Source of the DNA: Nitrospira sp.
GTDB taxonomy: Bacteria; Nitrospirota; Nitrospiria; Nitrospirales; Nitrospiraceae
Assembly (NCBI GenBank): GCA_031315995.1
Contig: JALDRG010000016.1
Location: forward strand, 5,566-69,565
Reading direction: 5' to 3'
Length of the DNA: 64,000 bases
How positions within the stretch are numbered: the stretch's first letter is position 1; the number at the start of each line of letters is the position of its first letter. This document shows positions 6,096-28,266 of the stretch, one piece after another. The notes beneath the pieces are model-generated. The model saw only the letters and a list, made by a program, of their open reading frames with translations, was not told the origin of the DNA and did not search any database. Made by a program: the position numbers and the translations under genes.

Positions 6096-6132
6096 TCATA
6101 TCTTTCTACCCGCGGCAACGGGATTTCCATCG

Positions 6133-8942: not shown

Positions 8943-11900
8943 CTACCCACGGCCCGAACCAAACATCTCGTCGACATTCTTCGACGGATGCCCATCGGAC
9001 CCCTCGCCTTGGCTGGACTCCCGTTCAAGCTTCTCACGACGCCTTGCCGCACGCACCACCGGCAAAGGGTCGAAATGGTGCCACGTCGGCATGGTCGCCA
9101 ACAGGCTCGCGAGCAACCAGCCTCCGCGAAGCAGCCACGCCAGATAGCCGACGGACAACACCAAGCTGACTCCGCCCGCCGTCTTGGCCGTCAAGGTCAT
9201 CTGCTCCTGTCGCTCGTCCATCGCCCGCTGCAAAGCCTCCGTCATGGTATTCAGCTCCTTGACGAGAGCCCTCCCCAGTTTGGCCGGGATGTACGTTTCC
9301 TTCACTGCCTCAACCACCCGTTGCGCCTCCTCTCCGATACGCGCAAGGAGTTCAGGTCCAAGCGTATCGAAGAACGGGGCATCGAGTTCCTGTTTGGCGA
9401 CCAACGTTGGCTCACGATCGACTGTCTGAGCGACCAGCAAGGCTGGACGACCGGGGCTAAGTCCTTGGTCCAGGTGCACAGGCAACCCAGCCTCCGGCGT
9501 CGCAGCCGACCCTGCCGGTGGACCACTCGGGGGAGCCGGCGCTGGAGGCCCTGGCGGCGGCTCACCTCCACGCGGCGGGCCGCCAGATGGCGGAGGCCCG
9601 ACCGGCGGCGTGATCGCCCCTTCGAGCACATCCGTGACCGATACGGCCACGGTCTGAACCGCCATGCCCCCATTCCCGTCAGCCACCTGAACCTGGACGA
9701 GATAGACGTTATCGCCATTGGCATCGGCTGGTGCTTCGAAGTCCGGTGCCGCGACAAACGCCAGGTCACCGGTGGCCGCATTAATGGTGAAGCGAGCCGC
9801 ATCCGCCCCGCCCACGATGCTGTATGTCGGCACATCACCGTCCGGATCGGAAGAGGTGACGGAGCCCACGGCGGTCGTATTTTCGACGACGCTATATGCG
9901 CTGGTGGAGGTGATCGTCGGCGGGCTGTTGACCGGCGTGACGGTAATGTTGAAGGTCGTCGCGCCAAGAGATCCGCCGCCTCCGTCATTGACCGTAAAAA
10001 CGAAGCTATCACTCACCGTCTGGGAGCCGTCATGAACGTAGACGAGCTCACCAGCATTGATGTCGGCTTGCGTAAAGGCAGTGATCGCGATGCCGGGAGC
10101 GGTCGTCAATTCCAGTTGTCCGTTGGTCGGCCCGATAGTTACCGTATACGTCAGTTGGACCGGCGTGTTGTCCGGGTCGGTGACCAGTAACTCGGCGGTC
10201 GTGATCGAATCGGTTCCACCCTCCGCTACCGTCGCCCCCCCATTGGTCGCCAGCACCGGCGCGTCGTTGACGGGATCGACGGTGATCGCCACCGTGTCCA
10301 CATCGCTCGCGCTGGTCGTATCCGTGCTCGTCACCGTCAGCGTGTCGGCCCCGGTGTAGTTCACGGTGCCCTGATAGCTGAGCGTGGCCAACGTCGCGTT
10401 GAGATCGGCCTGCGTCCCCGACAAGGTGAGCGTGGCCGTGCCGTTACTGCCTGCGCTGATCGTGGCGCCGCCCTGCAAGGTCACCGTCACGGTGCCGTTC
10501 AAGACCCCCAGCTGCACGGTGCTCAAATTACCGTCCACATCGGTGACCGAGATCCCGCCCAGCGCCAGCGCCGTGTCCTCGTTCACCGTTTGTGCCCCCG
10601 GCACCGTGTTCACCGGCGCGTCGTTGACGGGATCGACGGTGATCGCCACCGTGTCCACATCGCTCGCGCTGGTCGTATCCGTGCTCGTCACCGTCAGCGT
10701 GTCGGCCCCGGTGTAGTTCACGGTGCCCTGATAGCTGAGCGTGGCCAACGTCGCGTTGAGATCGGCTTGCGTCCCCGACAAGGTGAGCGTGGCCGTGCCG
10801 TTACTGCCTGCGCTGATCGTGGCCGCCCCGCTGAGCGTCACGGTGAGCTTGCCCTGCCCCACCCCCAGCTGCACGGTGCTCAAATTACCGTCCACATCGG
10901 TGACCGAGATCCCGCCCAGCGCCAGCGCCGTGTCCTCGTTCACCGTTTGCGCCCCCGGCACCGTGTTCACCGGCGCATCGTTGACCGCTGTGACATCGAT
11001 CGTCAGCGTGTTCGGCGTCCCGTCGAGGTCGCTCCCGCCGTTCGCCGTGCCCCCGTCGTCCTGCACCTGGAAGGTAAAACTTGTGAGCGCGGCCCCGTTG
11101 GCATCTGCAGGAGGCCTATACGTGACCAAGCCGGAGGCAATGTCCCACGCCACCACAAAGTCGTTGGCCGAGATGGTGTTGCCATTCCACCTGAGCGTCC
11201 CCTGCGCGGGCACTGTCGTGAACCACACTCGATCCAAGTTGTGCCCATCCACATCGCTAAAGCCGAAGTCCGCCGGAGCGAAGGTATAGTCCGTATCCTC
11301 CGTGGCCGTGATCGTGCCATTCGCTCCTGCTGGCGCATCGTTGACCGCGGCCACGGTCAGCGTCACCGTCTGCGTCGCGCTCGGCAGGGTCCCGTCATGG
11401 GCCACTACGGTGATCGAGCGGTTGCTCGGCGTCGGCTGGTCGCTCGTGTTGTTGTAGAGAAGGCCTTGCAGCACCGTCTGGTATACCGCCGGCGTGGCCG
11501 ACCCCGTGATCGACAGCACCCCCGTCGCCGCCGTGTAATTCACCGTTAAGCTCGCCCCGGAGGCCGCCGTCGTCGCCGCGCCATTGAGCGAGAGTGACTC
11601 CACGCCATCACCATCGAGCCGCGCCGTCAGCATGACCGTTAATGCGGTCAGAGTGGCCGAGTCCACATCGGTCAGCGTCCCCACCGGTGCAATCAGCACC
11701 GGGGTCTGTTCCGTGAATGCGGTGGTCACATCCTGGCCCGCCCCCCCGGCGTTCAGATCCACCGCCGGCGCATCGTTGGTCGCCACGATAGTGAGGTTCA
11801 CGGTGCCGTCGTTACTATAGGCAACGCCGTCCTCGGCCCTGATGTAGATCGTGCGCGAGGTGGTTGTCGGACTGTCGGACGTGTTCTGATAGCGGATCGT

Positions 11901-14900
11901 GCGCAACACCTGCTCGTAGTGCGCCACCGTATCGCTCCCGCTCAATGTCAGCACTCCGGTATTGGCATCATAGGCCACCGCGATCGAGGTGCCTGTGACG
12001 TCTGCGGTGAGTTGCTCGCTCGCACCGTCGTAGAGTGTGTCGATGCTTGCGGTCAGCCCGGACAACAGCGCGTCGTCGACATCGGTCAAGGTGGCATCGG
12101 CGTCCACAATCGCGACCGCTCCCGCCCCTTCCGTGAAGGTGGCCAAAAAATTGGCACCGGTCGCTCCGGAACTGTTGTCCGCGTCCAAGTCCAGCACCGG
12201 CGCATCGTTGACGGGATCGACGGTGATCGCCACCGTGTCCACATCGCTCGCGCTGGTCGTATCCGTGCTCGTCACCGTCAGCGTGTCGGCCCCGGTGTAG
12301 TTCACGGTGCCCTGATAGCTGAGCGTGGCCAACGTCGCGTTGAGATCGGCCTGCGTCCCCGACAAGGTGAGCGTGGCCGTGCCGTTACTGCCTGCGCTGA
12401 TCGTGGCGCCGCCCTGCAAGGTCACCGTCACGGTGCCGTTCAAGACCCCCAGCTGCACGGTGCTCAAATTACCGTCCACATCGGTGACCGAGATCCCGCC
12501 CAGCGCCAGCGCCGTGTCCTCGTTCACCGTTTGTGCCCCCGGCACCGTGTTCACCGGCGCGTCGTTCACGCCGCTGACCGTCACGGTCGTGTCGTAGTTG
12601 GCGCTGGTGCCGCCGTCCCCATCGGTCAACACATAGCGCACCGTGCGCGCCCCGGTCGTCGGCGCATTCGTGTCGGTGTCTTGATAGGTGATGTTCTGGA
12701 CCAAGGCCGTCACGGCCGTGGGGGTGGCGCTGCCGTTGAACGTAATCACGAGGTTCGTGCCGCTGCTGCCGCCGGTGACGGTCCCGATGGTCACGCCTTG
12801 ATAGGTCACATTGCTGCCGCTCACCCCGATCTGCCCGGCTCCGGTGCCTTGGTTGCGGATGCTGAGCACGTCCTCCGCACTGTCGCTGCCCGCGCTAAAG
12901 CTCACGGTGAGGGTGCCCGTGTTGAAGTCGGCACTGTCCACATCGGCCACCACCGCGTTGCCGCCCTGCTCGATGACCACCGCCCCGTCACCTTCGCTAT
13001 AGGCCAGGCTGTCGCCGCTCAGGTTCGTGATCGTCGGCGCGTCGTTGACGGGATCGACGGTGATCGCCACCGTGTCCACATCGCTCGCGCTGGTCGTATC
13101 CGTGCTCGTCACCGTCAGCGTGTCGGCCCCGGTGTAGTTCACGGTGCCCTGATAGCTGAGCGTGGCCAACGTCGCGTTGAGATCGGCTTGCGTCCCCGAC
13201 AAGGTAAGCGTGGCCGTGCCGTTACTGCCCGCGCTGATCGTGGCGCCGCCCTGCAAGGTCACCGTCACGGTGCCGTTCAAGACCCCCAGCTGCACGGTGC
13301 TCAAATTACCGTCCACATCGGTGACCGAGATCCCCGCCCAGCGCCAGCGCCGTATCCTCGTTCACCGTTTGCGCCCCGGCACCGTGTTCACCGGCGCATC
13401 GTTGACCGCGGCCACGGTCAGCGTCACCGTCTGCGTCGCGCTCGGCAGGGTCCCGTCATGGGCCACTACGGTGATCGAGCGGTTCGAGGTGGTCGGCGTA
13501 TCGCTCGTGTTGTTGTAGAGAAGGCCCTGCAGCACCGTCTGGTATACCGCCGGCGTGGCCGACCCCGTGATCGACAGCACCCCCGTCGCCGCCGTGTAAT
13601 TCACCGTTAAGCTCGCCCCGGAGGCCGCCGTCGTCGCCGCGCCATTGAGCGAGAGTGACTCCACGCCATCACCATCGAGCCGCGCCGTCAGCGTGACCGT
13701 TAATGCGGTCAGAGTGGCCGAGTCCACATCGGTCAGCGTCCCCACCGGTGCAATCAGCACCGGGGTCTGTTCCGTGAATGCGGTGGTCACATCCTGGCCC
13801 GCCCCCCCGGCGTTCAAATCCACCACCGGCGCGTCGTTCACGCCGCTGACCGTCACGGTCGTGTCGTAGTTGGCGCTGGTGCCGCCGTCCCCATCGGTCA
13901 ACACATAGCGCACCGTGCGCCCCGGTCGTCGGCGCATTCGTGTCGGTGTCTTGATAGGTGATGTTCTGGACCAAGGCCGTCACGGCCGTGGTCAACGCTG
14001 GCGTTGAACGTAATCACGAGGTTCGTGCCGCTGCTGCCGCCGGTAGCGGTCGATGGTCACGCCTTGATGAGTCACATTATGCCGCTCACGCCGATCTATC
14101 CGCGGTCGCCAGTTCCGGATGCTGGTACGTCCTCACGCACTGTCGCTGCCCGCGGTAAAGCTCACGGTGAGGGTGCCCGTGTTGAAGTCGGCACTGTCCA
14201 CATCGGCCACCACCGCGTTGCCGCCCTGCTCGATGACCACCGCCCCGTCACCTTCGCTATAGGCCAGGCTGTCGCCGCTCAGGTTCGTGATCGTCGGCGC
14301 ATCGTTGACGCCGCTGACCGTCACGGTCGTGTCGTAGTTGGCGCTGGTGCCGCCGTCCCCATCGGTCAACACATAGCGCACCGTGCGCGCCCCCGTGGTC
14401 GGCGCATTCGTGTCGGTGTCTTGATAGGTGATGTTCTTGACCAGCGCCGTCACCGCCGTGGGGGTGGCGCTGCCGTTGAACGTAATCACGAGGTTCGTGC
14501 CGCTGCTGCCGCCGGTGACGGTCCCGATGGTCACGCCTTGATAGGTCACATTGCTGCCGCTCACCCCGATCTGCCCGGCTCCGGTGCCTTGGTTGCGGAT
14601 GCTGAGCACGTCCTCCGCACTGTCGCTGCCCGCGCTAAAGCTCACGGTGAGGGTGCCCGTGTTGAAGTCGGCACTGTCCACATCGGCCACCACCGCGTTG
14701 CCGCCCTGCTCGATGACCACCGCCCCGTCACCTTCACTATAGGCCAGGCTGTCGCCGCTCAGGTTCGTGATCGTCGGCGCATCATTGACCGCCGTGATAT
14801 TGACTGTCGTGTTGCCCGTCGCGCTCAGTGCCCCGCCTCCGCCCTGGGCACCCGTGTTGCCGTCGTTGAAGGTCCAGTTGATCTGCACAGAAGCCGGCGG

Positions 14901-17900
14901 CGTCGAGCTGTTGTTGGCGTAGGCAATCGCGCGCATCGCCGAATCGACCAGCGTCTGGGTGGCGCCGGCGTTGAAGGTCAGCAGCAGGGTGCCGCCACTG
15001 TTGGTGGTGACCGTGCCGATGGTCGTGCCGTTGAACACGAGCGCGCCGCCCTCGGCCAGCGTCGCCAACAAGCCGGATGCCGAGTAGACGTCCTGGGCAT
15101 TCGCGCCACCGTTGCGCGCGAGGGTCAAGGTCGCGCCGCCGAAGTTGTTCAGCGTGCTCAGTTCGGCATCGAATATCGTCACATCGTTATCGAGCACGAC
15201 CGCCGTCGCTTTTTCGGTGTACGCAATCGTTCCACCAAGGCTATCGCGCGTGTTGAAGCGGCTATCGAGCGTGCCATCGCTGTTATAACGCACGACGGCG
15301 AAGTCATAGTCACCGCCGATGGTCGAGGTCCCGGCAACCACAATCTTGCCGTCCGTCTGCACCAAGACTGACGCACCACGATCGTCACTGCTGCCGCCGA
15401 AGTTGGTGTCTACCTTGCCGGTGCCCGCACCGAAGCTCGTGTCCAGGCTGCCGTTCGCGTTATAGCGCACGACGGCGAAATTATTACCGGCCGTACTGCT
15501 TTGGCCGGCCACCAGGATCTTACCGTCGGCCTGCACGGTCACGCTCTGGGCGAGATCGCTGCTGCTGCCGATGGCGGTTGTGACTTTCCCAGTACTGTTG
15601 AAAGTCGTATCCAGACTTCCGTCGGTATTGTAGCGGACCAGCGCGAAATCGGTTGTGCCACCGGCATCGCTCCATCCGGCAAGAAGAATCCTGCCGTCCG
15701 GCTGCAGGGTGACCTGGTAGCCAGTGTCACTACTGGTCGCGCCCAGATCCGTCAGCACCTTGCCGGTACCGTTGAACGTTGTATCCAGCGTGCCGTTGCT
15801 GTTATAGCGCGCCAAGGCGAAATCAAAGCTGGTGCCGCTAAATGCGAACCCGCCGAGCACGATCCGGCCGTCTGCCTGCAGCGCAATGCTGTACGCGCCA
15901 TCAGTGCCGGCGGCGAAATCGGTCGCGACGAATCCACTCGTACCGAAGCTTGTATCGAGACTGCCATTGCTGTTGAAGCGCGCCAGCCCGAAGTCGGAGT
16001 TGTACTTCCCCGCGACCAGGATTTTGCCGTCGCTTTGCACCGCGACCCCGTTGCCTTCGTCGTTGAAACTAGTGCCCGAGGTTGCGATGCCGTCGCCACC
16101 GCCAAAGCTGCTGTCCAGGCTGCCGTCGGCGTTGTACTGCACCAAGACCATGTCCCAACTGGTTCCGGTGTAGGTACTGCCGGCCACCACAATGCGACCA
16201 TCGGCCAACAGGTAGACGCCTTTCGCAATGTCATCGCTTGCACCGATGACCGTGGTGACCTTGCCGGTGCCGCCACCGAAGCTGGTGTCGAGGCTGCCGT
16301 CGGCGTTGTAGCGCGCGACAGCGATATCCTTGGTGCCGCCGGTCTGCGTGTATCCGACGGCAACGATCTTGCCGTCGGGTTGAATCACCGACGCATTGAT
16401 CAGATCCCACGTGCTGACTGCAAACGCGGTCGTCGTTCGGCCGGTTCCCACTTCGAACGACGGCGCATCATTGGCGGCCGTCACCGTGATCGCCACCGTA
16501 TCCACATCCGTCGCGCTCGTGGCATCCGTGCTCGTCACCGTGTGATGACATCTCGACGCGATTGGGTATGGACCAGCTGGTGACATGCTCGCGTTGAGAT
16601 CGGCTTGCGTCCCCGACAAGGTGAGCGTGGCCGTGCCGTTACTGCCTGCGCTGATCGTGGCGCCGCCCTGCAAGGTCACCGTCACGGTGCCGTTCAAGAC
16701 CCCCAGCTGCACGGTGCTCAAATTACCGTCCACATCGGTGACCGAGATCCCGCCCAGCGCCAGCGCCATTGTCCTCATTGACCGTTTGCGCCCCGGCACC
16801 GTGTTCACCGGCGCATCGTTGACACCGCTGACCGTCACGGTCGTGTCGTAGTTAGCGCTGGTGCCGCCGTCCCATCGGTCAACACATAGCGTACAAATGC
16901 GCGCCCCGGTCGTCGGCGCATTGGTGTCGGTGTCTTGATAGGTGATGTTCTGGACCGACCGTCACGGCCGTCGGCGTGGCGCTGGCGTTCAGCGTAATGA
17001 CGAGGTTCGTGCCGCTGCTGCCGCCGGTGACGGTCCCGATGGTCACGCCTTGATGGTCACATTGCTGCCGCTCACGCCGATCTGCCCCGCCCCGGTGCCT
17101 TGGTTGCGGATGCTGAGGACATCCTCCGCACTGTCGCTGCCCGCGGTAAAGCTCACGGTGAGGGTGCCCGTGTTGAAGTCGGCACTGTCCACATCGGCCA
17201 CCACCGCGTTGCCGCCCTGCTCGATCACCACGGCCCCATCGCCTTCGCTATAGGCCAGGCTGTCGCCGCTCAGGTTCGTGATCGTCGGCGCGACGTTGGT
17301 TGTGTAAGACACGACAAGTTGGGCAGCCGTCGCCGGATCGGTATCATACGCCTGAGAGGCACGGTGGCCAGTCCCGGTGATGATGATCGCTAAATCATTC
17401 CCCGATGCCCATGTGCCCTGATTCACGATTTCCTGCACCACGGAAGAAATGTCCGGCGAGTTGTAATCCAAGCCAGTCGTCCAGTTGGTTGGTGTCCAGG
17501 CGGTGGAAGCGCTGGTCAACGCCCGACTGCTGATATTGCCGCTGGTAGTTGTGAACGTCGGTGCATCGCCAATCAATTGCCCTTTCAATGTCAGGCTGGT
17601 TGCATCACTGTTTGTCATTCCAGAATCCGCTGGTATCGCTCGAAAGACAAGATACGCGTTGGTGATGGTCGCACCGACAGGAATATTCATTCCCGTAAAA
17701 CGGAGCCCGATCTTCTGTACCCCGGCAGTGGGAGACTGGAAGTCGCTCACAAGCTCGATATCACTGCTATTCAGCCACATCCTGTTGGGGGTAGTGCCAG
17801 TTGGTCCTTCTTCTTCGGCGTCGTCACTGGCTGCTGCTACCCTTTGAGTCAATGTAGCGGTATTGGCTACCGAAACGGTGACGGCGAACTCGGAGGTGTT

Positions 17901-20900
17901 GTTACTTGCATCGGTCGCTGTGGCAGTCACCCGATCGCCGAGAACTAATGTGCCGGCGGCAAAAGTAAACGAGAACTGCCGGGCCGTCGCATCGACGGTT
18001 CCGGCCGTGCTACCGCTCACCGTGCCACGACCGATCAAGGTCTGACCCTCGCCATTGACGCCGGCTGCATCTGGACTCTCGAAGAACTCTACGGTGGCGC
18101 CCGGCCGCGCCTCGCCGGTGATGATGACGTTGCCTCCCGATATCACCACGCTGTAGATCACCGGAAAGTTCATCAGATTGTTCGGCCCGGTGTCGCCGTC
18201 GCCGCCATCGTTGGTCGTGACACCGGACGTACCGAGATCGATGCCTAATCCCGTATTGCCGTAAATCGAATTGGACTGGATGGCATTCCCCGTCGTGCCC
18301 GCACCTGTCACACTCACCCCGACGGCGTTGCCTACGATGAGATTGCGTTCATTCGCATCATTGGTGCCGTCGTTGTTGCTGCCAATGAGCGTGCCAGTCG
18401 ATCCCCCTTCTACGCTGATACCATACGTACCGTTGGCGAGAACCGTCGTCCCGTCTGCACCGACACCGATGTAGTTGCCCTGGATGGTGGCACCGGTGCT
18501 CGCATTGCCCACCACGATGCCACTGTACGTATTCGCAGCGATGACATTGCGCGCGGCAGCCGACGAGCCGCCGAAGACGTTACCTGTACCGGCGTTCCAG
18601 AAGGTTGCACCACCGTTGATGTTGCCCAGCGCCAGTAGACCCGTCACGTCGGTACCGAGGTAGTTGCCCTGCAACAGGTTGTTCTGCGAGCCAAACAGCA
18701 CCTCAAAGCCGAAGTGGTTGTTGCCCGAGAGGATGTTTCGCGCGGCGGCAACGGTGCCGCCGACGACGTTGCCGCTGGAGCCGTTGGTCAGGAAGACGCC
18801 GCTTTGCGCCGTGTTGGCGACCGAGCCGTTCACGTCGGCGGTGCCCGCCGCGTTGGTGCCGACGTAGTTACCCGCGATCGTGCTGTTGTCAGCGTTGTCG
18901 AAGTAGATGCCCTGCTCGGCGTTGCCCGAGATCACGTTGCGCTCGGCGGCATCGTTCGTGCCATCGGCGTTGGTGCCGATCAACAGGCCCGTCGCGTTGA
19001 GTGCGTAGATGCCTTTGACGCCGTTAGCGGCGACCGCGGTGCCCGCCGCGTTCAGGCCGATCCAGTTGCCCTGGATGACATGATTGTTCGAATTCTGGAT
19101 TTCGATGCCCGTGCCGGTAAAGCGGTTGACGATCAGACCGCGTACCGTGCTGCCGCTGCTGCCGGCGTCGAGGAACAGGCCCCTGACACCGCCGCTGACG
19201 TTGTTGCCGTTCAGTTCGATCACCGGCGTGCCGGCGAAGTCGGGCTCGCTCCAGCCGTTGATGACCACGGGGCTGGTGATGGTGGGTATCGCGTCGGGTG
19301 TCGTGCCGGCGTCGGGGCCGTCGTAGCTGAGCGTGATCGTGTGTACACCGCCGACCAGTGCGGCCGTGATATCGAAATAGATGTAGTCCGTGCCGCTCGA
19401 GGCATTCGCTGCCGTGATGGCTTCACGCAATGAGATATGACCATCGGCTCCTGGGTTGGCGATCAGATTGGCGACGGATGTGGTTGTCCCATCTACTGTA
19501 TCGTTGGTGGTGCTCACCACGAGCCCTGCGCGAGGTCCAAATTCCGAGGTGCTGCCGTAGGTGCCGCCGCCTAAGTCACGCGTAGCGGTGGCGCTGATGC
19601 GCGTGATCGACGTAGCCGTCACACTATTCAAGGTGCCGGTGAAAGTCTGTGCGCCGCTGCCGGTGCTGGTGACCGATAAAGCACCCAAGAAAACCTGCCC
19701 TTCGCCGTAGCGGCTCGAGTCGATGCCGGAGGGATTCTCAAAAAGCTCGATGCGGTAGGTACCGGCTGGCACGTCCAGCACCAGGGTGACATCCAAGTTC
19801 GCCCCGTTCTGCACTATCTTTGTGATGATGGGAAAGTTAAGCAAGCCGTTGGCGCCGCTGTCCCCGTCGCCGCTGTCGTTGACAGTGACACCGTCGGTGC
19901 CAAGGTCGATGCCGAGCTGCGAGTTGCCGAGGATCGAGTTGCCGAGGATCGTGACGCCCGTGGATGCGGACGTCACGTTCACGCCGTAGGTGTTGTTCGC
20001 GATCAGGTTGCCGGCGCCGTTCGAGGTTCCGCCGATCGTGATGCTGCTGGCGCCGGCCACCGAGATGCCGCCGTAGTAGTTGCCGAGCGCCGTGGTGCCG
20101 TCGGCACCGACACCGATGTAGTTGCCCTGGATCACGTGTCCGCTGCCGCCGCTGATATAAATGCCGTCGGCGCTCAACGCGCCGTTGTTCTGCGCGGCGA
20201 TGATGTTGCGGTCGGCTGCGCTGGTGCCGCCGATCGTGGTGCTCACGGCGTTTAGCAGCGCGATTCCGTCGTGCTCGTTGCGCAGCGCGACGTTGCCGGT
20301 CGCATCGACACCGATCCAATTGCCGGCGATTAAGTTGACAGCGACGCCCGTGGCGACGATGCCGATGTCATTGTTGCCCGACACCAGGTTGTCGCGCACC
20401 GTGTTCGAGCCGCCTGTGATGCTGATGCCGGCGCCGGTATTGCCGACGTCGACGGTGCCGGCGGCATTGGTGCCGATGTAGTTGCCCTGTACGGTATTGC
20501 TTCCAGTACCGGCCAGTTGAACGCCGGCAAGGGCGTTGCCAGAAATGACGTTGCGCGCGCCTGTGGTCGTGCCACCGATCAGATTGCCCGTCGCGCTGCC
20601 CTGAATCTGGACACCGTCGCTGGACCGGTTGCCGCGATTAAGGGTGCCGGTGGCATCCGTGCCGATGTAGTTGCCCTGTACGATGTTGTTGGACGTGTTG
20701 ATCTCGATGCCCTCGAACATCCTCGAGATCACGTTGCGTGCGGCGGCCGTCGTGCCGCCGATGATGTTGCCAGTTCCCGAGATGATGGCGATGCCGACGT
20801 CGCCCAGTCCATTGTTGGTCGACCCGTCAGGATCCAGACCGATGTAGTTGCCTTGGATCAGGTGGCCGGTCACACCCGATCCCACGATGTCGATGCCTTC

Positions 20901-22205
20901 GTCGACGTTGTTGGTGATGACGTTACGGTCGTTCGGTCCGGTTCCACCGATGACGGCCAACGAACCTCGCAGATCGATGCCGTCGTCGCCGTTTCCGACA
21001 CCGCTTGAGCCTGTTCCTGTGGTGCCGATCCAATTTCCGCGGACCGTGATGCCATCGGCTCCCGTATCGACACGGATGCCGTCACCGGTAAACCGCGTCA
21101 ACACCAGACCTCGAACGATGCTGTTATCGGCCGTCGATGAGAACCTGATCCCGGTGGTCGCTACGCCATTGCCGTCCACACGAATCAGCGGATTGCTCGT
21201 AAAGCCGGTCTGGGTCCAGCCGTCGATTGTCACCTGGTCGGTGATCGTGTCTAAGTTGGATGCAAGCGTAATCGTCTGCGCCCCGGAACCGATGGCGAAT
21301 ACAATCGTGTCGGCACCGGCGGCGCCGTTCGCGCCAATGATCGCTTGGCGGAGCGAGCCGGCTCCGGCATCGTTCGTGTTGGTGACGGTGAAGGTCGCCA
21401 AGACGCCTTCCCAAGCCTCCTGCGTAGCCGTTCCGATCACGACGGAGGACTCAATCGATCCAGTCGCTACTTCCAAATTCCAGTTCGCAAATTCGGACAC
21501 ATGCCCTGTGCGGTCGGTGCTCGCCGCCACATCGGCGCCGGTGAGCTGCGCCAATGTCTGCATCGCCAACTGACCGGCCTCGCCGCGACCGAAGTTGCAA
21601 CCGTAGATCAGCAGGTCGGCATTCTGAGAGAGGCTTTGGCCGATCTGTTGAAACTGGTTCGCATACTGCTTCGTGATGGACTCTTGCGTCAGAAAACTTG
21701 TGCCGAGGTGGAGCTCCGCCTCGTTCCCTTCGGCGATCAGGTGAATCGCGTCCACGCCGGTGCGGTTCGCCAGCGCCTCGGCGATCTGCGCGATGCCGTC
21801 GCGGCGCCCATCAAGCAGGATGACTTCTGCATCGGGATTGATGCCCTGGAGGAGGACTTGAGAATCGGCAATGGTCGAGTCCACGAAGACGACTTCGCGA
21901 CGCTGCGTCGCCGGCGGATCGTAGGTGGAGATGGCGTCGAGGAGCGGATCCGGCGCAGAGGCGCTCGTATGGGGCGCATCGTGAGCTGCGTCCGCACTCA
22001 TTGCCGCGTCGGCCTGCTGTTTCGCGACCTGCTCCGGGGCGAGTTCGGCGGCGGTCGCTGCGGCCGCCGCGTCGAACATGAGGCGTGGCTCGAGCGCAAG
22101 CAAGGAGGCCTTTACCCCTCCGGACCGGCCTGTTGGGCGGCCTTTGCAGTTCGGCGGCTGCTGCTCCACGCCTGCCGGCCTCTTTGGCTGTGCTGGTCTT
22201 CCCAT
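8943..22205 (-). CDS. Giant (~4,400 aa) repetitive surface adhesin, apparently frameshifted: LEPRxxxD leader, DUF4347, two beta-helix blocks, delta-60 propeller, cadherin/Ig-like repeats, Pro linker, C-terminal hydrophobic helix
   Basis: ORF-track pieces 17043..22205, 14133..16838, 13362..13937 and 8943..13316 are collinear parts of one protein sharing VNDAP-delimited repeats. DUF4347-type motifs (VVFVDS, DAIHLI, DLLIYGCNFG, ADVAASTDRTG). Breaks coincide with indels relative to sister repeats. Confidence 0.85.
10258..17290 (-). repeat. Intragenic near-identical coding repeats (three module types)
   Basis: Module A (~360 bp, VNEDTALALGG...) near 10260, 10620, 12200, 13040, 16480. Module B (~480 bp, TITNLSGDSLAYSEG...) near 12560, 13830, 14300, 16810. 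Module C (~430 bp, VDLNAGGAGQDV...) near 11340, 13400. Boundaries approximate. Confidence 0.9.
15250..16400 (-). repeat. Seven delta-60-type repeats (beta-propeller) inside the adhesin
   Basis: Seven [QL]xDG[KR]I[VL]xxG...RYNxDGSLDxxF-like units in ORF 14133..16838. Confidence 0.85.
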
Positions 22206-22388
22206 GCTGGAATCTACTCTTCAGCCCCCGTGGTCGATGCACAGCTCCATCCCGACTTCATGGCCCCATTCGGGGATTGGATGCACCTCCCCATACAGTC
22301 CTTTTCGTCCGAAATGGCACTCGACTTGAGGCGATGGCCCGCCTCAGGACTCGCCATTCCAACCATAGCCACCACATTCGAAAATGCC

Positions 22389-24515
22389 TCAGAAGCCGCT
22401 CTCCCGGGCTAAGACGGCGACCGTTCGGACCCAAACCCGTTCGGCGACACTCCAGGGACGGCCCTCGACCTGGAGCGTTCCCGTGACGGCCTGGTTCCAG
22501 ACCGGTCCATCTCCCAGTAACTGGACATGCACGCGGAAGATGGACGCATCCGGCCGGACCCGACCCTGAGGATCTTTGCGAGTCGCAATGTTGCCTCCAT
22601 AGATCGATGCGTAGTAGGGAAGCGCGAACGTACTGTCATCGATCTGCCGAATTTCACGCACACGAGCCGGCAGCGCATCACGAATCAGATCCTTCGGAAC
22701 GAATCGCGCGAGTTGTCCCGGTTCGAGATAGGCCAGTTCACCTTCCGGGGCGACGGCATCGATTCCGGCCCGCTCCCCATCGACCACATAGGCTAACGCC
22801 AGCTTCTCGTTGACCCAACGACCTGGATGGAGGGATTCTGCGCAATCCGTCACTATCCCAGTGATCGGCGCCCGTAAGATCAGTTGTTCGCGCTGTTCCA
22901 GCAGCCCTCGCAGCTCTGCCCTGCGCGAGTGCAAGGATTCGACGACGACCTGGCGCTGCATGCGATCCGTTTCGCTGGAGGCCTGCCGCCCTGCGCGCAC
23001 TTCGAGGACTTCGATCTGTATCTGCGTGCGCCGCAGGTCCCGTTCAAGCTCCGGGGATTCAAGGTTCAGTAATATGTCGCCGGCCTGCACCCGTTGCCCA
23101 TTGCGAACCCTGACGGCACCGATGCGTGCGGGAATCGGAGCATAGAGGGTGGCATAGGGTGTCGCCTGGACCACTGCCTGGAGTGAGACCCGCGAAGACC
23201 ATGGGACGACCATCAGCATGATCAGCGTGAGCGATACCAGTGTCGTGACCCAGAACCGACTCCCCACGGCAAGCATGGATCGTTCCTTCCACCACCCATG
23301 GATTTCACGTCCGATCGGCAGCAGGATGAACCACAGGATTTCGACGGCAAACAGGACCACGCCCAAGGCCTTGAAGAAGAAAGAATAGACGAGTACGGCG
23401 ATCCCGAGGAACAGGAAGAACCGGTAGAGCCATGTCGCCCACGCATAGAGCAGCAGTTTTCGCCGTAACGCCGACGAGACGGGCTCCGGCGCCGCTTCAC
23501 CCGACGCAAACAGCAGTTCGCGGAGTTTCCATCGGCCGAAGGCGAAGGCGCGGTCTTGCAGGTTTGGGACTCCAAGCCAATCGGCCAGTAAGTAGTAGCC
23601 GTCGAATCGCATGAGCGGATTGAGGTTGATCGAGAGTCCGATCACCCAACTGGCCGTGGCGACCACGAAGGCCAGGGTGCGGGCTGTGCCATCGGGCAGG
23701 AAATTCCACGTAAACGTGGCCAGCATGGCCAAGGCGAGTTCCATCACCATTCCCGCGGCCCCGATCGCGAGCCGCTGACGCCGCGAGGTCAGGCGCCAGG
23801 CCTCGGTGGTATCGGAATAGAGCACCGGGAAGAGCACGAGCAATGCCACGCCCATGGTCTGCACACGACAGCCGTATTTGGTCGCCGTGTAGGCATGCCC
23901 CAGTTCATGCAACACTTTGATGCCGGCCAAGGCCGCGGCGGAGAGCACCGCGCCCTGGAACGTGAAGAAGGTGGGAAAGGTCGACACGAACGTGTCCCAT
24001 TGTCGACTGACCAAATACAACCCGCTCACCCCGAGCAATAGAACGAGCCAGGCGGCGCCCCACGTGAACAAGGGTGCGACCAGCGGGAGCGTCACGCGAA
24101 GGAACCGTTCCGGTCTGACGAGCGGGATGCGAACGAACAGGTAGTGGTGGAGCAGCCACGCCCCCCATCCCTGTCGCCTCGCTTCTGCCTGAGCGGCATA
24201 GTCCCGGCTGCTGCCGCTGGGCGTCTCTTCGGTGAGATTGTTGACGAAGAGAAACGTGATGAGGTCTTGGACGTCTTGCTCGGTTACTCGGCAGGTGGTC
24301 TCACTCTGAACGGAGTGGATGACCCGGTCGATCGATCCGCAGGCCCATCGTTCCAGCAATTGATGCGCCGTCCAACCGACCTGAAAATACCGGTTCCGAA
24401 CGGGATCGACGATCGTCCACACCGGTTGTCCATCCGGGGCAGGCGTCGATTCGAGAAATTGCAGATTGGCGCGAAGTCTCGGCAGCGGGCGCGCGGGTGA
24501 TGGCCCCATCAACAT
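22389..24515 (-). CDS. M50 (site-2) intramembrane metalloprotease fused to an HlyD-type adaptor domain
   Basis: HELGH and NLNPLMRFDG zinc motifs in a multi-TM core; C-terminal lipoyl-like hairpin, coiled coil and beta-barrel (VRVRNGQRVQAGD...LRAPITG). Confidence 0.9.
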   Translation of the reverse strand: MLMGPSPARPLPRLRANLQFLESTPAPDGQPVWTIVDPVRNRYFQVGWTAHQLLERWACGSIDRVIHSVQSETTCRVTEQDVQDLITFLFVNNLTEETPSGSSRDYAAQAEARRQGWGAWLLHHYLFVRIPLVRPERFLRVTLPLVAPLFTWGAAWLVLLLGVSGLYLVSRQWDTFVSTFPTFFTFQGAVLSAAALAGIKVLHELGHAYTATKYGCRVQTMGVALLVLFPVLYSDTTEAWRLTSRRQRLAIGAAGMVMELALAMLATFTWNFLPDGTARTLAFVVATASWVIGLSINLNPLMRFDGYYLLADWLGVPNLQDRAFAFGRWKLRELLFASGEAAPEPVSSALRRKLLLYAWATWLYRFFLFLGIAVLVYSFFFKALGVVLFAVEILWFILLPIGREIHGWWKERSMLAVGSRFWVTTLVSLTLIMLMVVPWSSRVSLQAVVQATPYATLYAPIPARIGAVRVRNGQRVQAGDILLNLESPELERDLRRTQIQIEVLEVRAGRQASSETDRMQRQVVVESLHSRRAELRGLLEQREQLILRAPITGIVTDCAESLHPGRWVNEKLALAYVVDGERAGIDAVAPEGELAYLEPGQLARFVPKDLIRDALPARVREIRQIDDSTFALPYYASIYGGNIATRKDPQGRVRPDASIFRVHVQLLGDGPVWNQAVTGTLQVEGRPWSVAERVWVRTVAVLARESGF

Positions 24516-24518
24516 GGC

Positions 24519-25919
24519 TCACCACCCCACGAATTGGCGAAGGGCGGACAGCGGACGCCGGAACAGGAGAAATGCCAACGGGCCTTGCTGCCCATAAATC
24601 TTGGCGGTGCCTTGCCACCCGATTCGGACCGCTCGATTCGTGCCCGTCAGCCCGGCGGTCACATGATAGGCCAGCTGATCGCCGGGAAGCACTTCGGCAT
24701 GGTACCCGGCATGCGTCACCTTGGCTTTGTACGTCTCGAGCGGCTGCGCGTCGAAAAACACCGCCACCTCCGCATCTTCCTGCAGCAACATCGCATCATT
24801 GACGGCCAAATCGATGCGCAATTCCAGCTGCGCAGGATCAGCGATCTCCATGATCCGTTCTCCCACGACCACCGGTTTCCCGACCCAATCGGCCTTATCG
24901 GTATAAATGAGCAAGCCGGACCGCAACGCCTTCACCTCCACTCGATCCAGGAGTTCCTTGGCATAGTCTCGCTCGGTCTCTTTGAGACGGGCTTCCGCCT
25001 CCAGAAGGGGAACTTCGGCCTTGCGCTGTGGATCGAGGAATCCCGATTGGACGGCTTGGTGGTGCTCCGCCTTGGCGACCGCGAGCTGCTTGCCTGCGAC
25101 GTGATACTGATTGCGCACATTCGTGTCTTCATACCGCAGGATCGTCTGACCCTCGACCACCATCGTGTTCGGCGGGACGAGGACCTCGGCCAACACGCCG
25201 TCCATCGGTGCCGTCACCACAGCCGGCTCTTTGGCGACGACCTTGACCGGGGCCAGCGTGGAGAGATGCACCGGGATACAGAGCGCCAGCAGCATGCCGA
25301 CGACGACGAGCCAGGTGACCCGACGAGGCAGCTTCCAGCTTCCGAACGAGCCGGGCTTCGCGAGGGCCTTGTACGCATGGGCATAGGTCTCGACCAGCCG
25401 TTGTAGAATCTGGATCTCATTGTCCTGCCAGGGCTGATCACGGTCGAGCCACAGTCCCCCGAGCAGGGACCGGTCGGGATGACGCAGAGGACACCAGAGG
25501 GCATGCGAGCCGGCAAATTCTTTCCATCCATCCCGGAGAGACGGAGAGCAGTCTTCGGCGGAGATCCGCATCGGCGTCTCAACGTCAGGACCTGTCCTGC
25601 TATTCCGCACCAGCTGCTCCAGCCATCGCATCATCGGGGCATCGCGCTCCACTTGGGACAGGCTCGAGGCCGCATGGACCTGGTAAGGCGATGCGGGATG
25701 CCTGCCTGCGCCGAACAGAAAGGCCTGACGGTACGCGATGAGGCGCCGAGTTTCGTTGACGATGAAAAATTCAAGAGCGTGGGCGGTGGGTTGCGCCCGT
25801 GCCTGACCTTCCAGTTGAAGCAGGATCGTCAAGGCCGGCGTTCCTGACGGCGCATCGTTCTGGCTTCCCGACGTAGCGCCTGGAGCTTCCCTGCAAGGCA
25901 TGTGGAGCACGTTCTGCAT
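24519..25919 (-). CDS. HlyD-family periplasmic adaptor with N-terminal GAF-like domain
   Basis: N-terminal GAF-like segment (FFIVNETRRLIAYRQA...LWCPL...GGLWLDR), one TM, then adaptor (APMDGVLAEVLVPPN, GERIMEIADP). Confidence 0.85.
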   Translation of the reverse strand: MQNVLHMPCREAPGATSGSQNDAPSGTPALTILLQLEGQARAQPTAHALEFFIVNETRRLIAYRQAFLFGAGRHPASPYQVHAASSLSQVERDAPMMRWLEQLVRNSRTGPDVETPMRISAEDCSPSLRDGWKEFAGSHALWCPLRHPDRSLLGGLWLDRDQPWQDNEIQILQRLVETYAHAYKALAKPGSFGSWKLPRRVTWLVVVGMLLALCIPVHLSTLAPVKVVAKEPAVVTAPMDGVLAEVLVPPNTMVVEGQTILRYEDTNVRNQYHVAGKQLAVAKAEHHQAVQSGFLDPQRKAEVPLLEAEARLKETERDYAKELLDRVEVKALRSGLLIYTDKADWVGKPVVVGERIMEIADPAQLELRIDLAVNDAMLLQEDAEVAVFFDAQPLETYKAKVTHAGYHAEVLPGDQLAYHVTAGLTGTNRAVRIGWQGTAKIYGQQGPLAFLLFRRPLSALRQFVGW

Positions 25920-25964
25920 AGGACGACCGTAGTGCGGCTGAGTGACGAATCGCTGCGTCCAAGG

Positions 25965-26759
25965 TTAGGGGTGGGGAACGGGAAAACTTGCCGTACCACT
26001 CATCCCTGCCAACACCTCGGAAGGGAGCTTCTCAAACCGCCCCGTGACCTTGATGGTTTGACTGGCCGGATCGACATTGGCTCCCAGTTCCTTGACCACT
26101 GCGGGATAGGGGCGTCCGGTTTCATCCACAGAGAAGACGAACCGCCCGCCTCTGGCCAACCAGCTCAGTGAATTCGACGGCAAGACAAGTTCGATCTCCA
26201 AACTGGTATCATCCAACAGGCTCAGCAACTTGTCGTTCGGAAAGACATTTTCATATTCGTGGACCAAGACCTCCACGATCCGTCCCGAGAACGGCGCCGT
26301 GATTTCACACCCCCGCACGTTGATTTCCATGATCCGGATGGCCGCCAACGCTTTTTTCGCCTCGGCCGCCGAAACTTCGACTTCCAATTGGCCGACGGCA
26401 TGCAAAGTTGCCAGTTGAAGATTGTTCCGATGGGTCTTTTCTTTCGCCTCGTATTCCGCCATCGCCCCTGCGAGCTCCGCTCGGTACTTGTCGCAATCGA
26501 TTTGGACCAGTGAACTGCCCTTCTTGAACCGCGCCCCTTCTCGAAACGGCAATCGCTTGACGCGACCTTGAATCTGACTAAATAACACCGCCTGCGTGGC
26601 GGCCTTGACGATGCCGCGCATCGCCTGGAGCTCACTTCGCACAGCCGGCGACGACGGTTCGGGCTTGGCCTCCCCACGGGCGTGGCCGGTCACACACAGG
26701 AGGCTTCCCGCCAGAACAAGACAGACGTTACTGAGCCACCGGACGAATCGTAGGGACAT
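25965..26759 (-). CDS. Periplasmic adaptor subunit (membrane-fusion protein) with signal peptide
   Basis: SQIQGRV...FKKG, ITAPFSGRI, VDPASQT motifs. Start re-called at MSLRF (26759) from the RBS. Confidence 0.88.
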   Translation of the reverse strand: MSLRFVRWLSNVCLVLAGSLLCVTGHARGEAKPEPSSPAVRSELQAMRGIVKAATQAVLFSQIQGRVKRLPFREGARFKKGSSLVQIDCDKYRAELAGAMAEYEAKEKTHRNNLQLATLHAVGQLEVEVSAAEAKKALAAIRIMEINVRGCEITAPFSGRIVEVLVHEYENVFPNDKLLSLLDDTSLEIELVLPSNSLSWLARGGRFVFSVDETGRPYPAVVKELGANVDPASQTIKVTGRFEKLPSEVLAGMSGTASFPVPHP

Positions 26760-28266
26760 CCTGTTCCTTCTTACGTACTGGGACCATCGCAACCATTTCC
26801 GACCGTTCCCAGTGCTCTCGGATCGCCTGAGCCAACTCCGCGACGTTCTGACTCGGTGTCATCGACGGCACGGCGTCCTCTCCGATGGCCGCCATGAGGT
26901 TGCCTTGCGCGGCTTCAAAAGCGGAACGCGCCACGTCGAGGCGCACCTCGGCGAGCACCTCATTCACTTTTTCTCGAATCAGATTGAGATCGCTCGTGCT
27001 GCGGGTCAGCCAGCCCCGCTGCGTCTGATCGGCGATTTGAACTTGGGTGACTTGATACCGTGCCGCATTGTCCAGTTCTTGGCGCGAGTAGGCGAGTTGA
27101 GTGGCTCCGACATGCACCTCCGTCAAGACCGTCAAGGAGGTGGCCAAGCTTTGCGTCTTCAACACGTCGTCCTGGGTCTGGATGACTTTCGATTTGGCGC
27201 GTTGGCTGAAGACGTTGAGCAGGTTCCAGCTGACCTGCGAAGCGTAGCCGAGCCAGTTCTGGTACAGAAAGAAACTGTTACTGCTGTAGTTCCCGCCGAA
27301 TTGGGCGCGCAAATTGGGAAACATTTGCAGGAGGGCGACTTTCGCTTCCTTGGCATTGACTCGTTTCTGATAATCGATGGTGCGGAGTTCCGGTCGATTC
27401 ATCAGGGCTTGCTCTTCTAAGCGGTCGAGGTCCAGATTGGCGACCGGGACGGCACGATCGACGGCCGGCATCTTCAGCTGGTAGAAGGCGTCGGGCTGGA
27501 GATTCATCAGTGACGCCAGCTGCACCTTCGCGATATTCAATTCCCGGTAGAGCCGCTGGACTTCACGCTGAATATTGAGCAGATCGCGCTGATAGTTGAG
27601 CGGCGCGAGCGGCGACTGAAGTTTCCTATCGTAAATGGTCCTGGTGTTCGCCAACGCTTTGGTGACCTGGTCGTCCAACGACGCCACCTTGCCGATCAAT
27701 CGATCGGCGCTCGCTGCCCGCCAAAATGCGTTCCGAACGTCCTGTATCAGCCGGATGGCCTGCCGCCGCTTTTCTTCCTGCGCGATCAAGACATTGTCTG
27801 CCGCTTGCTGCGCCCGCACATAGGAGAGGCCGAAATCCAATACGTCCCAACTCAAATACAGATTTCCGGTAAAGATGTTCCGATCGGCGGAGGTGACCGG
27901 TTCCAGGATCTGTCGACCGGTGAGGAGCGACACGGCGGTACCGCCGCTGAAGTTGTTGCGACCATCATACCCGGCATTCGCCGCAAGCTGAGGCAGGAGC
28001 GAATAATGCGCGAGGTCCAGTTGCTGGTGCGCAAACATGGTCTGCATGACCTTCACTCGACTGTCCAAGTTGTATTTCAACGCGCGGGCCATGGCTTCGT
28101 AAAGATCAATAGGCCCGGTCACCGGATCCTGGTCCGCGTGTAGGATCCGAATATCGTCCGCGACCCGCAAACGGATCTCTTCGTCCGTCAGCGGATGCGG
28201 CACGATCATGCAGGACGTGAGAAACAAGAGGGCAGAGCCCAACCCTATGGCGTAGAGACGGTTCAT
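26728..28266 (-). CDS. TolC-family outer-membrane channel (lipoprotein)
   Basis: Lipobox LTSC; OEP repeat motifs (AMARALKYNLD, LSWDVLDFG, ALMNRPEL). Confidence 0.9.
   Translation of the reverse strand: MNRLYAIGLGSALLFLTSCMIVPHPLTDEEIRLRVADDIRILHADQDPVTGPIDLYEAMARALKYNLDSRVKVMQTMFAHQQLDLAHYSLLPQLAANAGYDGRNNFSGGTAVSLLTGRQILEPVTSADRNIFTGNLYLSWDVLDFGLSYVRAQQAADNVLIAQEEKRRQAIRLIQDVRNAFWRAASADRLIGKVASLDDQVTKALANTRTIYDRKLQSPLAPLNYQRDLLNIQREVQRLYRELNIAKVQLASLMNLQPDAFYQLKMPAVDRAVPVANLDLDRLEEQALMNRPELRTIDYQKRVNAKEAKVALLQMFPNLRAQFGGNYSSNSFFLYQNWLGYASQVSWNLLNVFSQRAKSKVIQTQDDVLKTQSLATSLTVLTEVHVGATQLAYSRQELDNAARYQVTQVQIADQTQRGWLTRSTSDLNLIREKVNEVLAEVRLDVARSAFEAAQGNLMAAIGEDAVPSMTPSQNVAELAQAIREHWERSEMVAMVPVRKKEQDVPTIRPVAQ

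Follow-up and report, generated by a model that had tools for sequence, protein, structure and literature searches.

To our knowledge, the known TolC-dependent systems all place an energised transporter, whether of the ABC, RND or MFS type, in the inner membrane. Here we describe a locus that encodes no such motor of its own. It lies in a stretch of 64,000 nucleotides from Nitrospira sp. (GenBank assembly GCA_031315995.1, contig JALDRG010000016.1, positions 5,566 to 69,565; hereafter the window) and consists of five genes, for a TolC-type outer-membrane factor (OMF), two adaptors, a putative intramembrane M50 protease fused to a third adaptor (hereafter the fusion) and a LEPR-XLL/DUF4347 protein of more than four thousand residues (hereafter the giant protein). 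We consider it slightly better than an even bet, with a probability of roughly 0.55, that the five make up a single dedicated module across the envelope, by which the adjacent giant protein is recognised, processed and exported.

Giant-adhesin type I secretion systems (T1SS; HlyB-HlyD-TolC, LapBCE-LapA with LapG/LapD, and SiiCDF-SiiE) resemble the module in having a TolC-type OMF, HlyD-family adaptors and a giant neighbour of the cadherin/VCBS type, and also in the lack of a Sec signal and the association with a protease and a cytoplasmic ligand-binding domain. In the window, matches to PF02321 and, on three proteins, to HlyD_3/HlyD_D23 supply the OMF and adaptor components of a T1SS, while none of the three adaptors reaches the cut-off of TIGR01843 (type_I_hlyD). 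Unlike a T1SS, the module has no ABC gene and no RTX nonapeptides, and it has three different adaptors instead of one; T1SS substrates carry a C-terminal signal, whereas the giant protein has a conserved N-terminal tag (LEPR-XLL plus DUF4347). Where Lap systems use a periplasmic LapG-type cysteine protease, the module has an inner-membrane M50 protease fused to an adaptor, and Pfam and NCBIfam scans confined to the five module genes found no LapG- or LapD-type domain in them. Peptidase-containing ABC transporters (PCATs; bacteriocin/microcin exporters of the CvaAB-TolC type) build a leader-recognising protease into the inner-membrane part of a TolC/adaptor exporter; the same is proposed for the fusion, with the N-terminal leader likewise cut off during export. 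In PCATs, a C39 cysteine domain sits on an ABC protein with ATPase domains and the cargo is small peptides, whereas the fusion joins an RRE-like domain to an M50 metalloprotease, has no nucleotide-binding domain (NBD) and has a candidate cargo of thousands of residues. We class the system as a TolC/adaptor tripartite type with a putative built-in leader peptidase.

The nearest relative in gene content was described in silico by Kamneva, Poudel & Ward 2015 (PLoS One 10:e0129066; PMC4452313) as a module around secondary SecA_DEAD genes. The passages of that paper that set out the module list genes for GAF+HlyD, Peptidase_M50+HlyD and HlyD/Biotin_lipoyl proteins, sometimes with an outer-membrane efflux protein (OEP); they point out that an ABC transporter is missing, suggest the M50 protein as the pore and SecA_DEAD as the motor, and call the role unknown. 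The window module has the same trio of proteins, with the optional OEP also present. The published order is GAF, M50, SecA_DEAD, HlyD, whereas modules of the window type lack SecA_DEAD in the 80 loci surveyed below; as far as those passages go, LEPR-XLL/DUF4347 giants are not linked to the published module, whereas the window module is tied to them. The Nitrospira counterpart of the published module carries a 719-aa paralogue of the fusion, 27-30% identical to it, which eight sister genomes carry and this genome lacks, and Nitrospira genomes with the paralogue only have no DUF4347 gene. Because the SecA_DEAD-linked form is thus a paralogue that is absent here and does not travel with DUF4347, the window module is, judged from sequence, a SecA-less sister type of the module of Kamneva et al., tied to LEPR-XLL/DUF4347 giants. 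Two paralogue loci (L018, G031:C1:2660000-2679999, and L019, G004:C1:3194000-3213999) have a SecA_DEAD gene of about 700 aa directly after the fusion paralogue; in genome G004 this SecA_DEAD-linked module lies 8 kb upstream of an HlyB-type ABC gene.

Full-text searches of the literature returned no functional or mechanistic study of the module, and none linking the SecA-less module to LEPR-XLL/DUF4347 giants. An earlier reading of the window, made without database searches (the sequence-only reading), had known of no mechanistic characterisation of such clusters; we too found none, although the paralogous SecA_DEAD-linked form had been described in silico in the 2015 paper, in the passages cited above (PMC4452313). 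A 2026 in-silico list of Azospirillum DUF4347 proteins also exists. Two apparent mentions of M50 in reviews of tripartite pumps proved to be a residue number and a DOI, and a bioRxiv paper on giant genes deals with other proteins. The protease part has a relative of its own in MpaP (bioRxiv 10.1101/2023.03.08.531785), described as a leader-removing intramembrane site-2 protease with an RRE at its N-terminus. This layout resembles the RRE-like domain and HExxH protease of the fusion, to whose residues 27-395 MpaP is homologous, but MpaP has neither an adaptor domain nor an OMF partner and cuts short precursors with ELExMEAP leaders in Gram-positive bacteria.

The five genes of the module, with positions in the window, are as follows.

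26728-28266, minus strand: OMF (TolC/OprM-type), 512 aa; PF02321 OEP, E 2.5e-28, in two stretches
25965-26792, minus strand: small periplasmic adaptor (membrane fusion protein, MFP), 275 aa; TIGR01730 RND_mfp 109.5 bits, above cut-off; HlyD_3 E 1e-14
24519-25919, minus strand: GAF-like::transmembrane (TM)::adaptor protein, 466 aa; HlyD_3 E 3.3e-9
22389-24515, minus strand: RRE-like::M50::adaptor fusion, 708 aa; Peptidase_M50 33.5 bits; HlyD_3 E 4.9e-10
8943-22205, minus strand: giant LEPR-XLL/DUF4347 gene, one frame of 4,420 codons, broken as assembled

They are tightly packed and, as the sequence-only reading had noted, all run in one direction. The four transport genes are spaced by -65 (or -32), 45 and 3 nt, with 183 nt to the giant gene, and a scan of the locus for consensus promoters and terminators gave no signal above chance. 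The OMF begins with a lipoprotein signal (lipobox LTSC, in LLFLTSC) and had no match in an NCBIfam scan. The listed TTG start of the small adaptor is uncertain, with an ATG 11 codons further in; hydropathy gives this protein a single N-terminal hydrophobic segment, which we take as a signal peptide and which, with the TIGR01730 match, bears out its earlier description as a signal-peptide adaptor. The next protein had been called a GAF-adaptor. Its adaptor part is borne out by the HlyD_3 match, whereas the GAF match is weak (20.3 bits against a cut-off of 22.4); GAF is annotated in 48-57% of the members of related Atlas clusters, and no Walker A motif was seen in its sequence. Its predicted layout is a cytoplasmic GAF-like domain (about aa 1-195), a TM helix at aa 201-219 by hydropathy, and a periplasmic adaptor domain.

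The giant gene is the single DUF4347 gene of the genome (3.88 Mb in 37 contigs, 93.6% complete), whose proteins have Nitrospira species as their nearest named relatives. Its product starts with a basic leader of 37 residues that has no hydrophobic core, and the translation contains no Sec-type hydrophobic signal. The following features lie towards its two ends.

22053-22094, minus strand: conserved N-terminal tag LEPRLMFDAAAAAT, directly after the 37-residue leader (translation)
21399-21893, minus strand: DUF4347 domain, aa 105-269; PF14252 E 4.5e-52, full length 1-164
9078-9185, minus strand: C-terminal hydrophobic segment GGVSLVLSVGYLAWLLRGGWLLASLLATMPTWH, followed by FDPLPVV and a charged tail

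An N-terminal LEPR motif followed by DUF4347 is the layout of LEPR-XLL/DUF4347 proteins, and the giant protein has both, the NCBIfam model NF012209 (LEPR-XLL) giving a borderline 16.9 bits against a cut-off of 17. The same beginning is found in all 37 of the 37 DUF4347 neighbours of the fusion, each with a short basic leader, a tag of the form LE[PSQK]R[IMLVFY]x[FL]D[GA]A (consensus LEPRxxFDGAAxAT), a linker and DUF4347. Beyond this domain the giant protein has, in order, two parallel beta-helix regions, a seven-bladed delta-60 propeller and repeats of the tandem-95, cadherin-like, VCBS and Big_9 types, then a proline-rich spacer, the hydrophobic C-terminal segment and the charged tail. A PDB sequence search with the leader and DUF4347 region yielded no significant match, and NCBIfam gave nothing for the C-terminal 225 residues. 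The end of the protein is not that of a T1SS substrate, with its C-terminal signal and RTX GGxGxD repeats: there are two chance GGxGxD matches in the 4,420 residues, in keeping with the earlier observation that the adhesin has no RTX nonapeptides. Aligned with the giants of four further loci (L020, L021, L023 and L017), Nitrospirales giants share the C-terminal pattern G..L..G...W[LM][LV]R[GS]G.LL......[LM]P[AT]W[RH].FDP[LI]P and a charged tail.

The fusion combines three parts, whose positions in the window are given below together with the motifs of the protease.

24216-24515, minus strand: RRE-like (PqqD-like) N-domain, about aa 1-100; three strands then three helices in the AlphaFold2 (AF2) model
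23895-23909, minus strand: HELGH zinc-binding/catalytic motif, intact, in TM helix 2 (translation)
23598-23627, minus strand: NLNPLMRFDG, second M50 motif, intact; third zinc ligand Asp305
22392-23198, minus strand: adaptor (MFP) domain, aa 440-708, with a short alpha-hairpin (H488-512 / H521-543)

Peptidase_M50 (PF02163) matches with 33.5 bits against a cut-off of 27.2, and H203, E204, H207, N297 and D305 are invariant across 140 diverse homologues. An AF2 model built from 140 sequences was of high confidence (pLDDT 94.3, pTM 0.82) and predicts seven TM helices, with HELGH in the second, and the membrane-embedded beta-hairpin typical of site-2 proteases. With an HExxH motif in a predicted TM helix, a second motif with an Asp ligand and a polytopic core, the protein belongs to the M50 family by sequence and model; PDB sequence searches gave weak matches at the HExxH helix to the MJ0392 site-2 protease and RseP. 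It is also the only polytopic inner-membrane protein predicted in the set, which agrees with the earlier proposal that the M50-adaptor takes the inner-membrane position. Foldseek searches with the whole model returned only adaptor folds (MacA, MexA, EmrA, AcrA and ZneB, E 1e-12 to 1e-10), and PDB profile matches of the adaptor domain were to HlyD, MacA and EmrA. From model and profiles, the C-terminal domain is a bona fide TolC-docking adaptor.

Since the whole-protein search gave adaptor matches only, the N-domain was modelled and searched separately. Modelled alone, it has pLDDT above 90 over residues 11-90, with the elements E19-23, E32-37, E42-46, H48-55, H62-72 and H79-91. The best Foldseek hit was TbiB1 with bound leader peptide (5v1u/5v1v; probability 1.00, TM-score by target 0.68-0.71, E 0.013), followed by the CteB RRE; all lower matches were noise, and Pfam PqqD had no match in the fusion at E<=0.01. 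In topology the model matches an RRE, the leader-peptide-binding type of winged helix with a three-stranded sheet before three helices, and we propose that the N-domain binds a leader. Seven TM helices together with a periplasmic adaptor domain imply, from the helix count, that the N-domain should be cytoplasmic, which would place HELGH towards the cytoplasmic end of TM helix 2. Residues 27-395 match NF041824 (daptide_HExxH) with 159.6 bits (E 1.2e-46), short of the 300 bits set for the equivalog. With daptide genes absent and an extra adaptor domain in the protein, the fusion is not assigned to this equivalog.

The fusion belongs to a large family, with more than 4,800 relatives at E<=1e-10 (90% clusters) and 3,611 clusters at 50% identity and E<=1e-30, nearly all of about 700-720 aa and aligned end to end among the matches listed. 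We surveyed the neighbourhoods of orthologues, taking one genome per species, which gave 80 loci annotated at the level of open reading frames (ORFs), 68 of them with enough flank for comparison. They include loci from Nitrospira defluvii, many Pseudomonas, Azospirillum, Rhizobium, Methylobacterium and Trinickia, and also from Hyphomicrobium, Pelagibacteraceae, Scalindua, Desulfobulbaceae and Geobacteraceae; the 68 loci span Nitrospirota, Proteobacteria, Desulfobacterota, Planctomycetota and SAR11. The small adaptor and then the GAF-adaptor lie upstream of the fusion, in this order, in 60 of the 68, and an OMF is present in 46, following the giant gene in Pseudomonas. Of the 41 loci flanked by at least 7 kb on each side, 36 have the giant gene next to the module; DUF4347 was seen in 23 of these 36, and a co-directional ORF of at least 1,000 aa runs off the upstream edge in the other 13. 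None of the 80 loci has an RND or SecA-like ORF anywhere, and none has an ABC gene inside the module, although weak NBD-like ORFs lie 2-9 kb away in a few. The sequence-only reading had proposed such a survey, to look for co-occurrence with DUF4347 proteins and absence of ABC genes. Nitrospira sp. ND1 and two metagenome loci have the same five genes in the same order, with giants of 1,605 to more than 4,379 aa that differ in domain content. Homologues of the fusion also occur on 60 plasmids in PLSDB, among them Azospirillum megaplasmids (e.g. NZ_CP007795.1:490871-492976), 18 Escherichia plasmids and 8 Citrobacter plasmids, with 43-46% identity in these three groups; their annotation goes no further than 'HlyD family adaptor' or 'site-2 protease family protein'.

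Co-occurrence in the Nitrospirales is exact. A full-length orthologous fusion (37-92% identity) was found in 24 of 61 genomes: the genome studied here, 21 further members of its genus and a single genome from each of two more families. PF14252 occurs in precisely these 24, adjoining the fusion each time, and absent from the other 37, one of which, 80% complete, has a fusion fragment only. In a gammaproteobacterial order represented by 151 genomes, all six with the fusion also have DUF4347. We regard the functional link between module and giant protein as well supported, and hold it with high confidence.

Could a motor be supplied from elsewhere? No ABC ATPase (PF00005) was found on the whole 72-kb contig that carries the window (C8), phmmer queries for ABC NBDs and RND proteins had no match in any window ORF, and the window has no SecA-like ORF; the earlier statement that no ABC or RND gene lies in the 64 kb therefore holds. 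The genome does encode a canonical T1SS on another contig (C34:76568-85868; L009:7569-16869), with an HlyB-type ABC (TIGR01846, 1044 bits), a type_I_hlyD adaptor (395 bits) whose gene overlaps that of HlyB, and, 3 kb downstream, an RTX protein of 867 aa; the ORFs listed for this region include no OMF. The other four ABC_membrane genes encode MsbA, two MsbA-like proteins and one cyclic-peptide exporter, and the three MsbA-type proteins all score below the T1SS cut-offs. PF07517 (SecA_DEAD) matches a single protein of this genome, the 905-aa housekeeping SecA of contig C36, and no secondary SecA was found. The cyclic-peptide-type exporter (TIGR01194, 472 bits; C32:94168-103778, L010) adjoins a 2,628-aa non-ribosomal peptide synthetase (NRPS).

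A dedicated T1SS ABC gene (TIGR01846, TIGR01842 or TIGR03375) was found neither in the locus nor tied to it. HlyB-type ABC proteins score above cut-off in about 33 of 36 genomes of the genus, with or without the module, including at least 10 without it, whereas a search of G009, a complete genome in one contig where the five module genes are all present, found none. In a 1.3-Mb SAR11 single-cell genome that carries the module, the only ABC_membrane gene encodes 580 aa. The HlyB-type T1SS does not co-vary with the module, and on this ground a hidden T1SS ABC partner was not taken as the simplest reading and is a less likely one. The sequence-only reading had itself named a dedicated T1SS ABC gene elsewhere that co-occurs with the cluster or is required by it as evidence that would speak against it; a T1SS ABC gene lies on C34 but does not co-vary with the module, so its presence does not refute that reading.

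Export by way of the OMF, capture and cutting of the leader, the position of the cut and independence of an ATPase are all inferences, and we picture the events as follows. The cytoplasmic RRE-like domain would bind the N-terminal LEPR tag of the nascent or unfolded giant protein, and the M50 site would clip the leader around the Pro-containing LEPR segment, much as bacteriocin exporters do with their peptidase domain. Probably as an oligomer, the membrane part of the fusion may form with the GAF-like and small adaptors an inner-membrane and periplasmic conduit that docks on the OMF, through which the chain would reach the surface. In Nitrospirales, the C-terminal hydrophobic segment and charged tail could be kept in the inner membrane as a stop-transfer tether, and the GAF-like domain might couple opening or assembly of the conduit to a cytoplasmic ligand. 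Candidate drives are the proton-motive force, an unlinked housekeeping ATPase, or a ratchet in which the cadherin/VCBS repeats fold outside the cell in a Ca-dependent manner. The sequence-only reading had proteolysis gate export or release. The RRE-like N-domain, the homology to the daptide leader peptidase and the universal LEPR tag make it more likely that the protease reads and removes the N-terminal leader; release at a C-terminal anchor is less likely, for reasons of distribution and orientation taken up below.

Several observations weigh against an export module of this kind. We know of no precedent for moving 4,400 residues without an energy source, and the module encodes no motor. In the sister genomes the paralogous module is always paired with a secondary SecA_DEAD ATPase (660-740 aa), a hint that a motor is needed and may here be supplied in trans. 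The RRE fold match is modest, with E 0.013-0.19 and TM-scores by query of 0.41-0.48 for TbiB1 and CteB. Five of the 41 well-flanked loci have no giant gene, the giant gene of the window is frame-broken as assembled, and 11 of the 151 gammaproteobacterial genomes have DUF4347 without an orthologous fusion (threshold E<=1e-60). It follows from the last point that the LEPR tag is not exclusive to the module, and that the link runs from module to giant protein and not always in reverse. Fusion-less DUF4347 proteins, of 800-3,400 aa, occur in genomes G083, G105, G109, G116, G133, G155, G176, G187, G195 and G210; in five such proteins the match is confined to positions 33-154 of the Pfam model, a sign that a subfamily of DUF4347 may depend on another route.

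In its strongest form, the export module would be a truly motor-less secretion route that uses no ATPase, is distinct from types I to XI and extends from SAR11 to Nitrospira, Pseudomonas and E. coli plasmids. The fusion oligomer would then be the portal, the giant protein being threaded tag-first or as a hairpin into a three-adaptor tunnel and the TolC-type channel, driven by the proton-motive force or by extracellular Ca-dependent folding. We put this form forward tentatively, as a possibility on the doubtful side.

Of the competing explanations, the one that fares best, and which we consider somewhat doubtful, is that the module provides conduit and leader peptidase only, while an unlinked motor (the housekeeping SecA, an MsbA-like half-transporter or the C34 HlyB) powers the inner-membrane step. 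All these candidates are encoded in the genome, the constant pairing of the paralogue with SecA_DEAD in eight sister Nitrospira genomes fits, and so does the motor role given to SecA_DEAD in the passages of Kamneva et al. quoted above (PMC4452313). Against it, the HlyB has its own adjoining HlyD and RTX substrate and the distribution described above, no secondary SecA exists in this genome or in the 80 orthologous loci, and the giant protein lacks a Sec-type hydrophobic signal.

The C-terminus allows a second alternative, an inverted Lap-type system in which the hydrophobic segment tethers the giant protein, the M50 protease sheds it within the membrane and the GAF-like domain acts as the switch. 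The Gly/Pro helix breakers in the segment and the charged tail behind it suit such a role, and M50 site-2 proteases cut within or near TM helices. But the segment is specific to Nitrospirales giants. The giants that accompany orthologous modules in Proteobacteria, SAR11 and Scalindua lack it and have a different, soluble motif at this end, in the proteobacterial ones of the P[SG][LF]T.QL type, 30-50 residues from the end; the N-terminal tag and RRE-like domain are universal, the anchor is not. Moreover, with the bulk of the protein outside, a C-terminal anchor would run N-out/C-in, whereas the segments that site-2 proteases typically cut run N-in/C-out. With an anchor that is neither universal nor in the preferred orientation, C-terminal shedding is unlikely.

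It is more improbable still that the module handles another cargo, such as a small peptide of the RiPP (ribosomally synthesised and post-translationally modified peptide) kind or a signal, or serves regulated-proteolysis signalling, with the giant protein a mere conserved neighbour. The closest named relatives of the protease part are indeed RiPP leader peptidases (daptide MpaP, and YydH/LiaK at E 2.6e-7), the Joint Genome Institute (JGI) name for the family is 'putative peptide zinc metalloprotease', and a minority of well-flanked loci lack a giant gene. This is outweighed by the exact co-occurrence and adjacency of DUF4347 in Nitrospirales (24/24 genomes with the fusion, 0/37 without) and by the presence of the conserved leader-like tag on the giant protein itself; the window's gene gaps of 3, 45 and 183 nt leave no room for a small ORF, although no systematic small-ORF search was made.

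The state of the giant gene bears on whether the locus is functional here. The sequence-only reading had reported an adhesin of about 4,400 aa, and the giant frame with its DUF4347 domain is there, but not as a single open frame: as assembled it comprises three ORFs, 17043-22205 (1720 aa), 14133-16838 (901 aa) and 8943-13316 (1457 aa), and is interrupted by seven stops that fall within four clusters of 1-nt indels.

16874-17055, 16467-16795, 13830-14135 and 13335-13378, minus strand: frameshift clusters (span 13335-17055), all inside near-identical repeat copies

After each shift the reading frame is regained within tens of codons. In copy-to-copy DNA alignments, intact repeats differ by 0-9 substitutions and no indels, while the broken ones show 2 to 30 gap columns; three copies have dense 1-nt indels, several of them in G/C runs. 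We compared Logan short-read contigs from four metagenomes, one of them probably the source sample, over positions 12800-17600. At the indel pairs 13332/13373 and 16768/16790 all covering contigs, from three to four samples each, carry the frame-restoring version; these contigs covered two pairs and not the other clusters, and may derive from intact sister repeats. The confinement of the indels to near-identical repeats and the frame-restoring contigs indicate that the breaks are probably assembly or polishing errors. That the locus is decaying here, with the giant gene a pseudogene and the module idle, as the seven stops and four clusters could suggest, is the least credible explanation of all, given also that the four transport genes are intact, with their invariant residues kept, and that each shift is compensated.

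In the proposed export module, an intramembrane protease that binds a leader and is fused to an adaptor would stand in for the energised transporter. The family counts thousands of sequence clusters from at least five phyla, and its apparent cargo is proteins of 1,200 to over 4,000 residues. If correct, this would explain how LEPR-XLL/DUF4347 giants arrive at the surface of environmental bacteria, including wastewater nitrifiers and SAR11, would give the long-noticed LEPR motif a receptor and would pose a sharp bioenergetic question. The hypothesis can be put to a direct test, since the module occurs in tractable hosts (Pseudomonas stutzeri, P. nitroreducens, Azospirillum brasilense and E. coli plasmids).

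Outside the module, a PAS kinase gene lies 21 nt past the stop of the giant gene and is followed by two further genes (window 4824-8921, minus strand). This neighbourhood is not kept in three other Nitrospira loci (L011-L013), whose giant genes are followed by a DUF2934 gene and by unrelated ones. In six Pseudomonas loci (L072, L073, L076, L078, L080 and L087), 1.5-4.3 kb of conserved accessory genes lie between the fusion and the giant gene, from about position 12090 of these loci up to the start of the latter. By eye their products are GNAT-like, phage tail-collar/MdpB-like and sulfotransferase-like (GLPRSGST) proteins and a GT39-like membrane protein of about 540 aa, and they might modify the giant protein.

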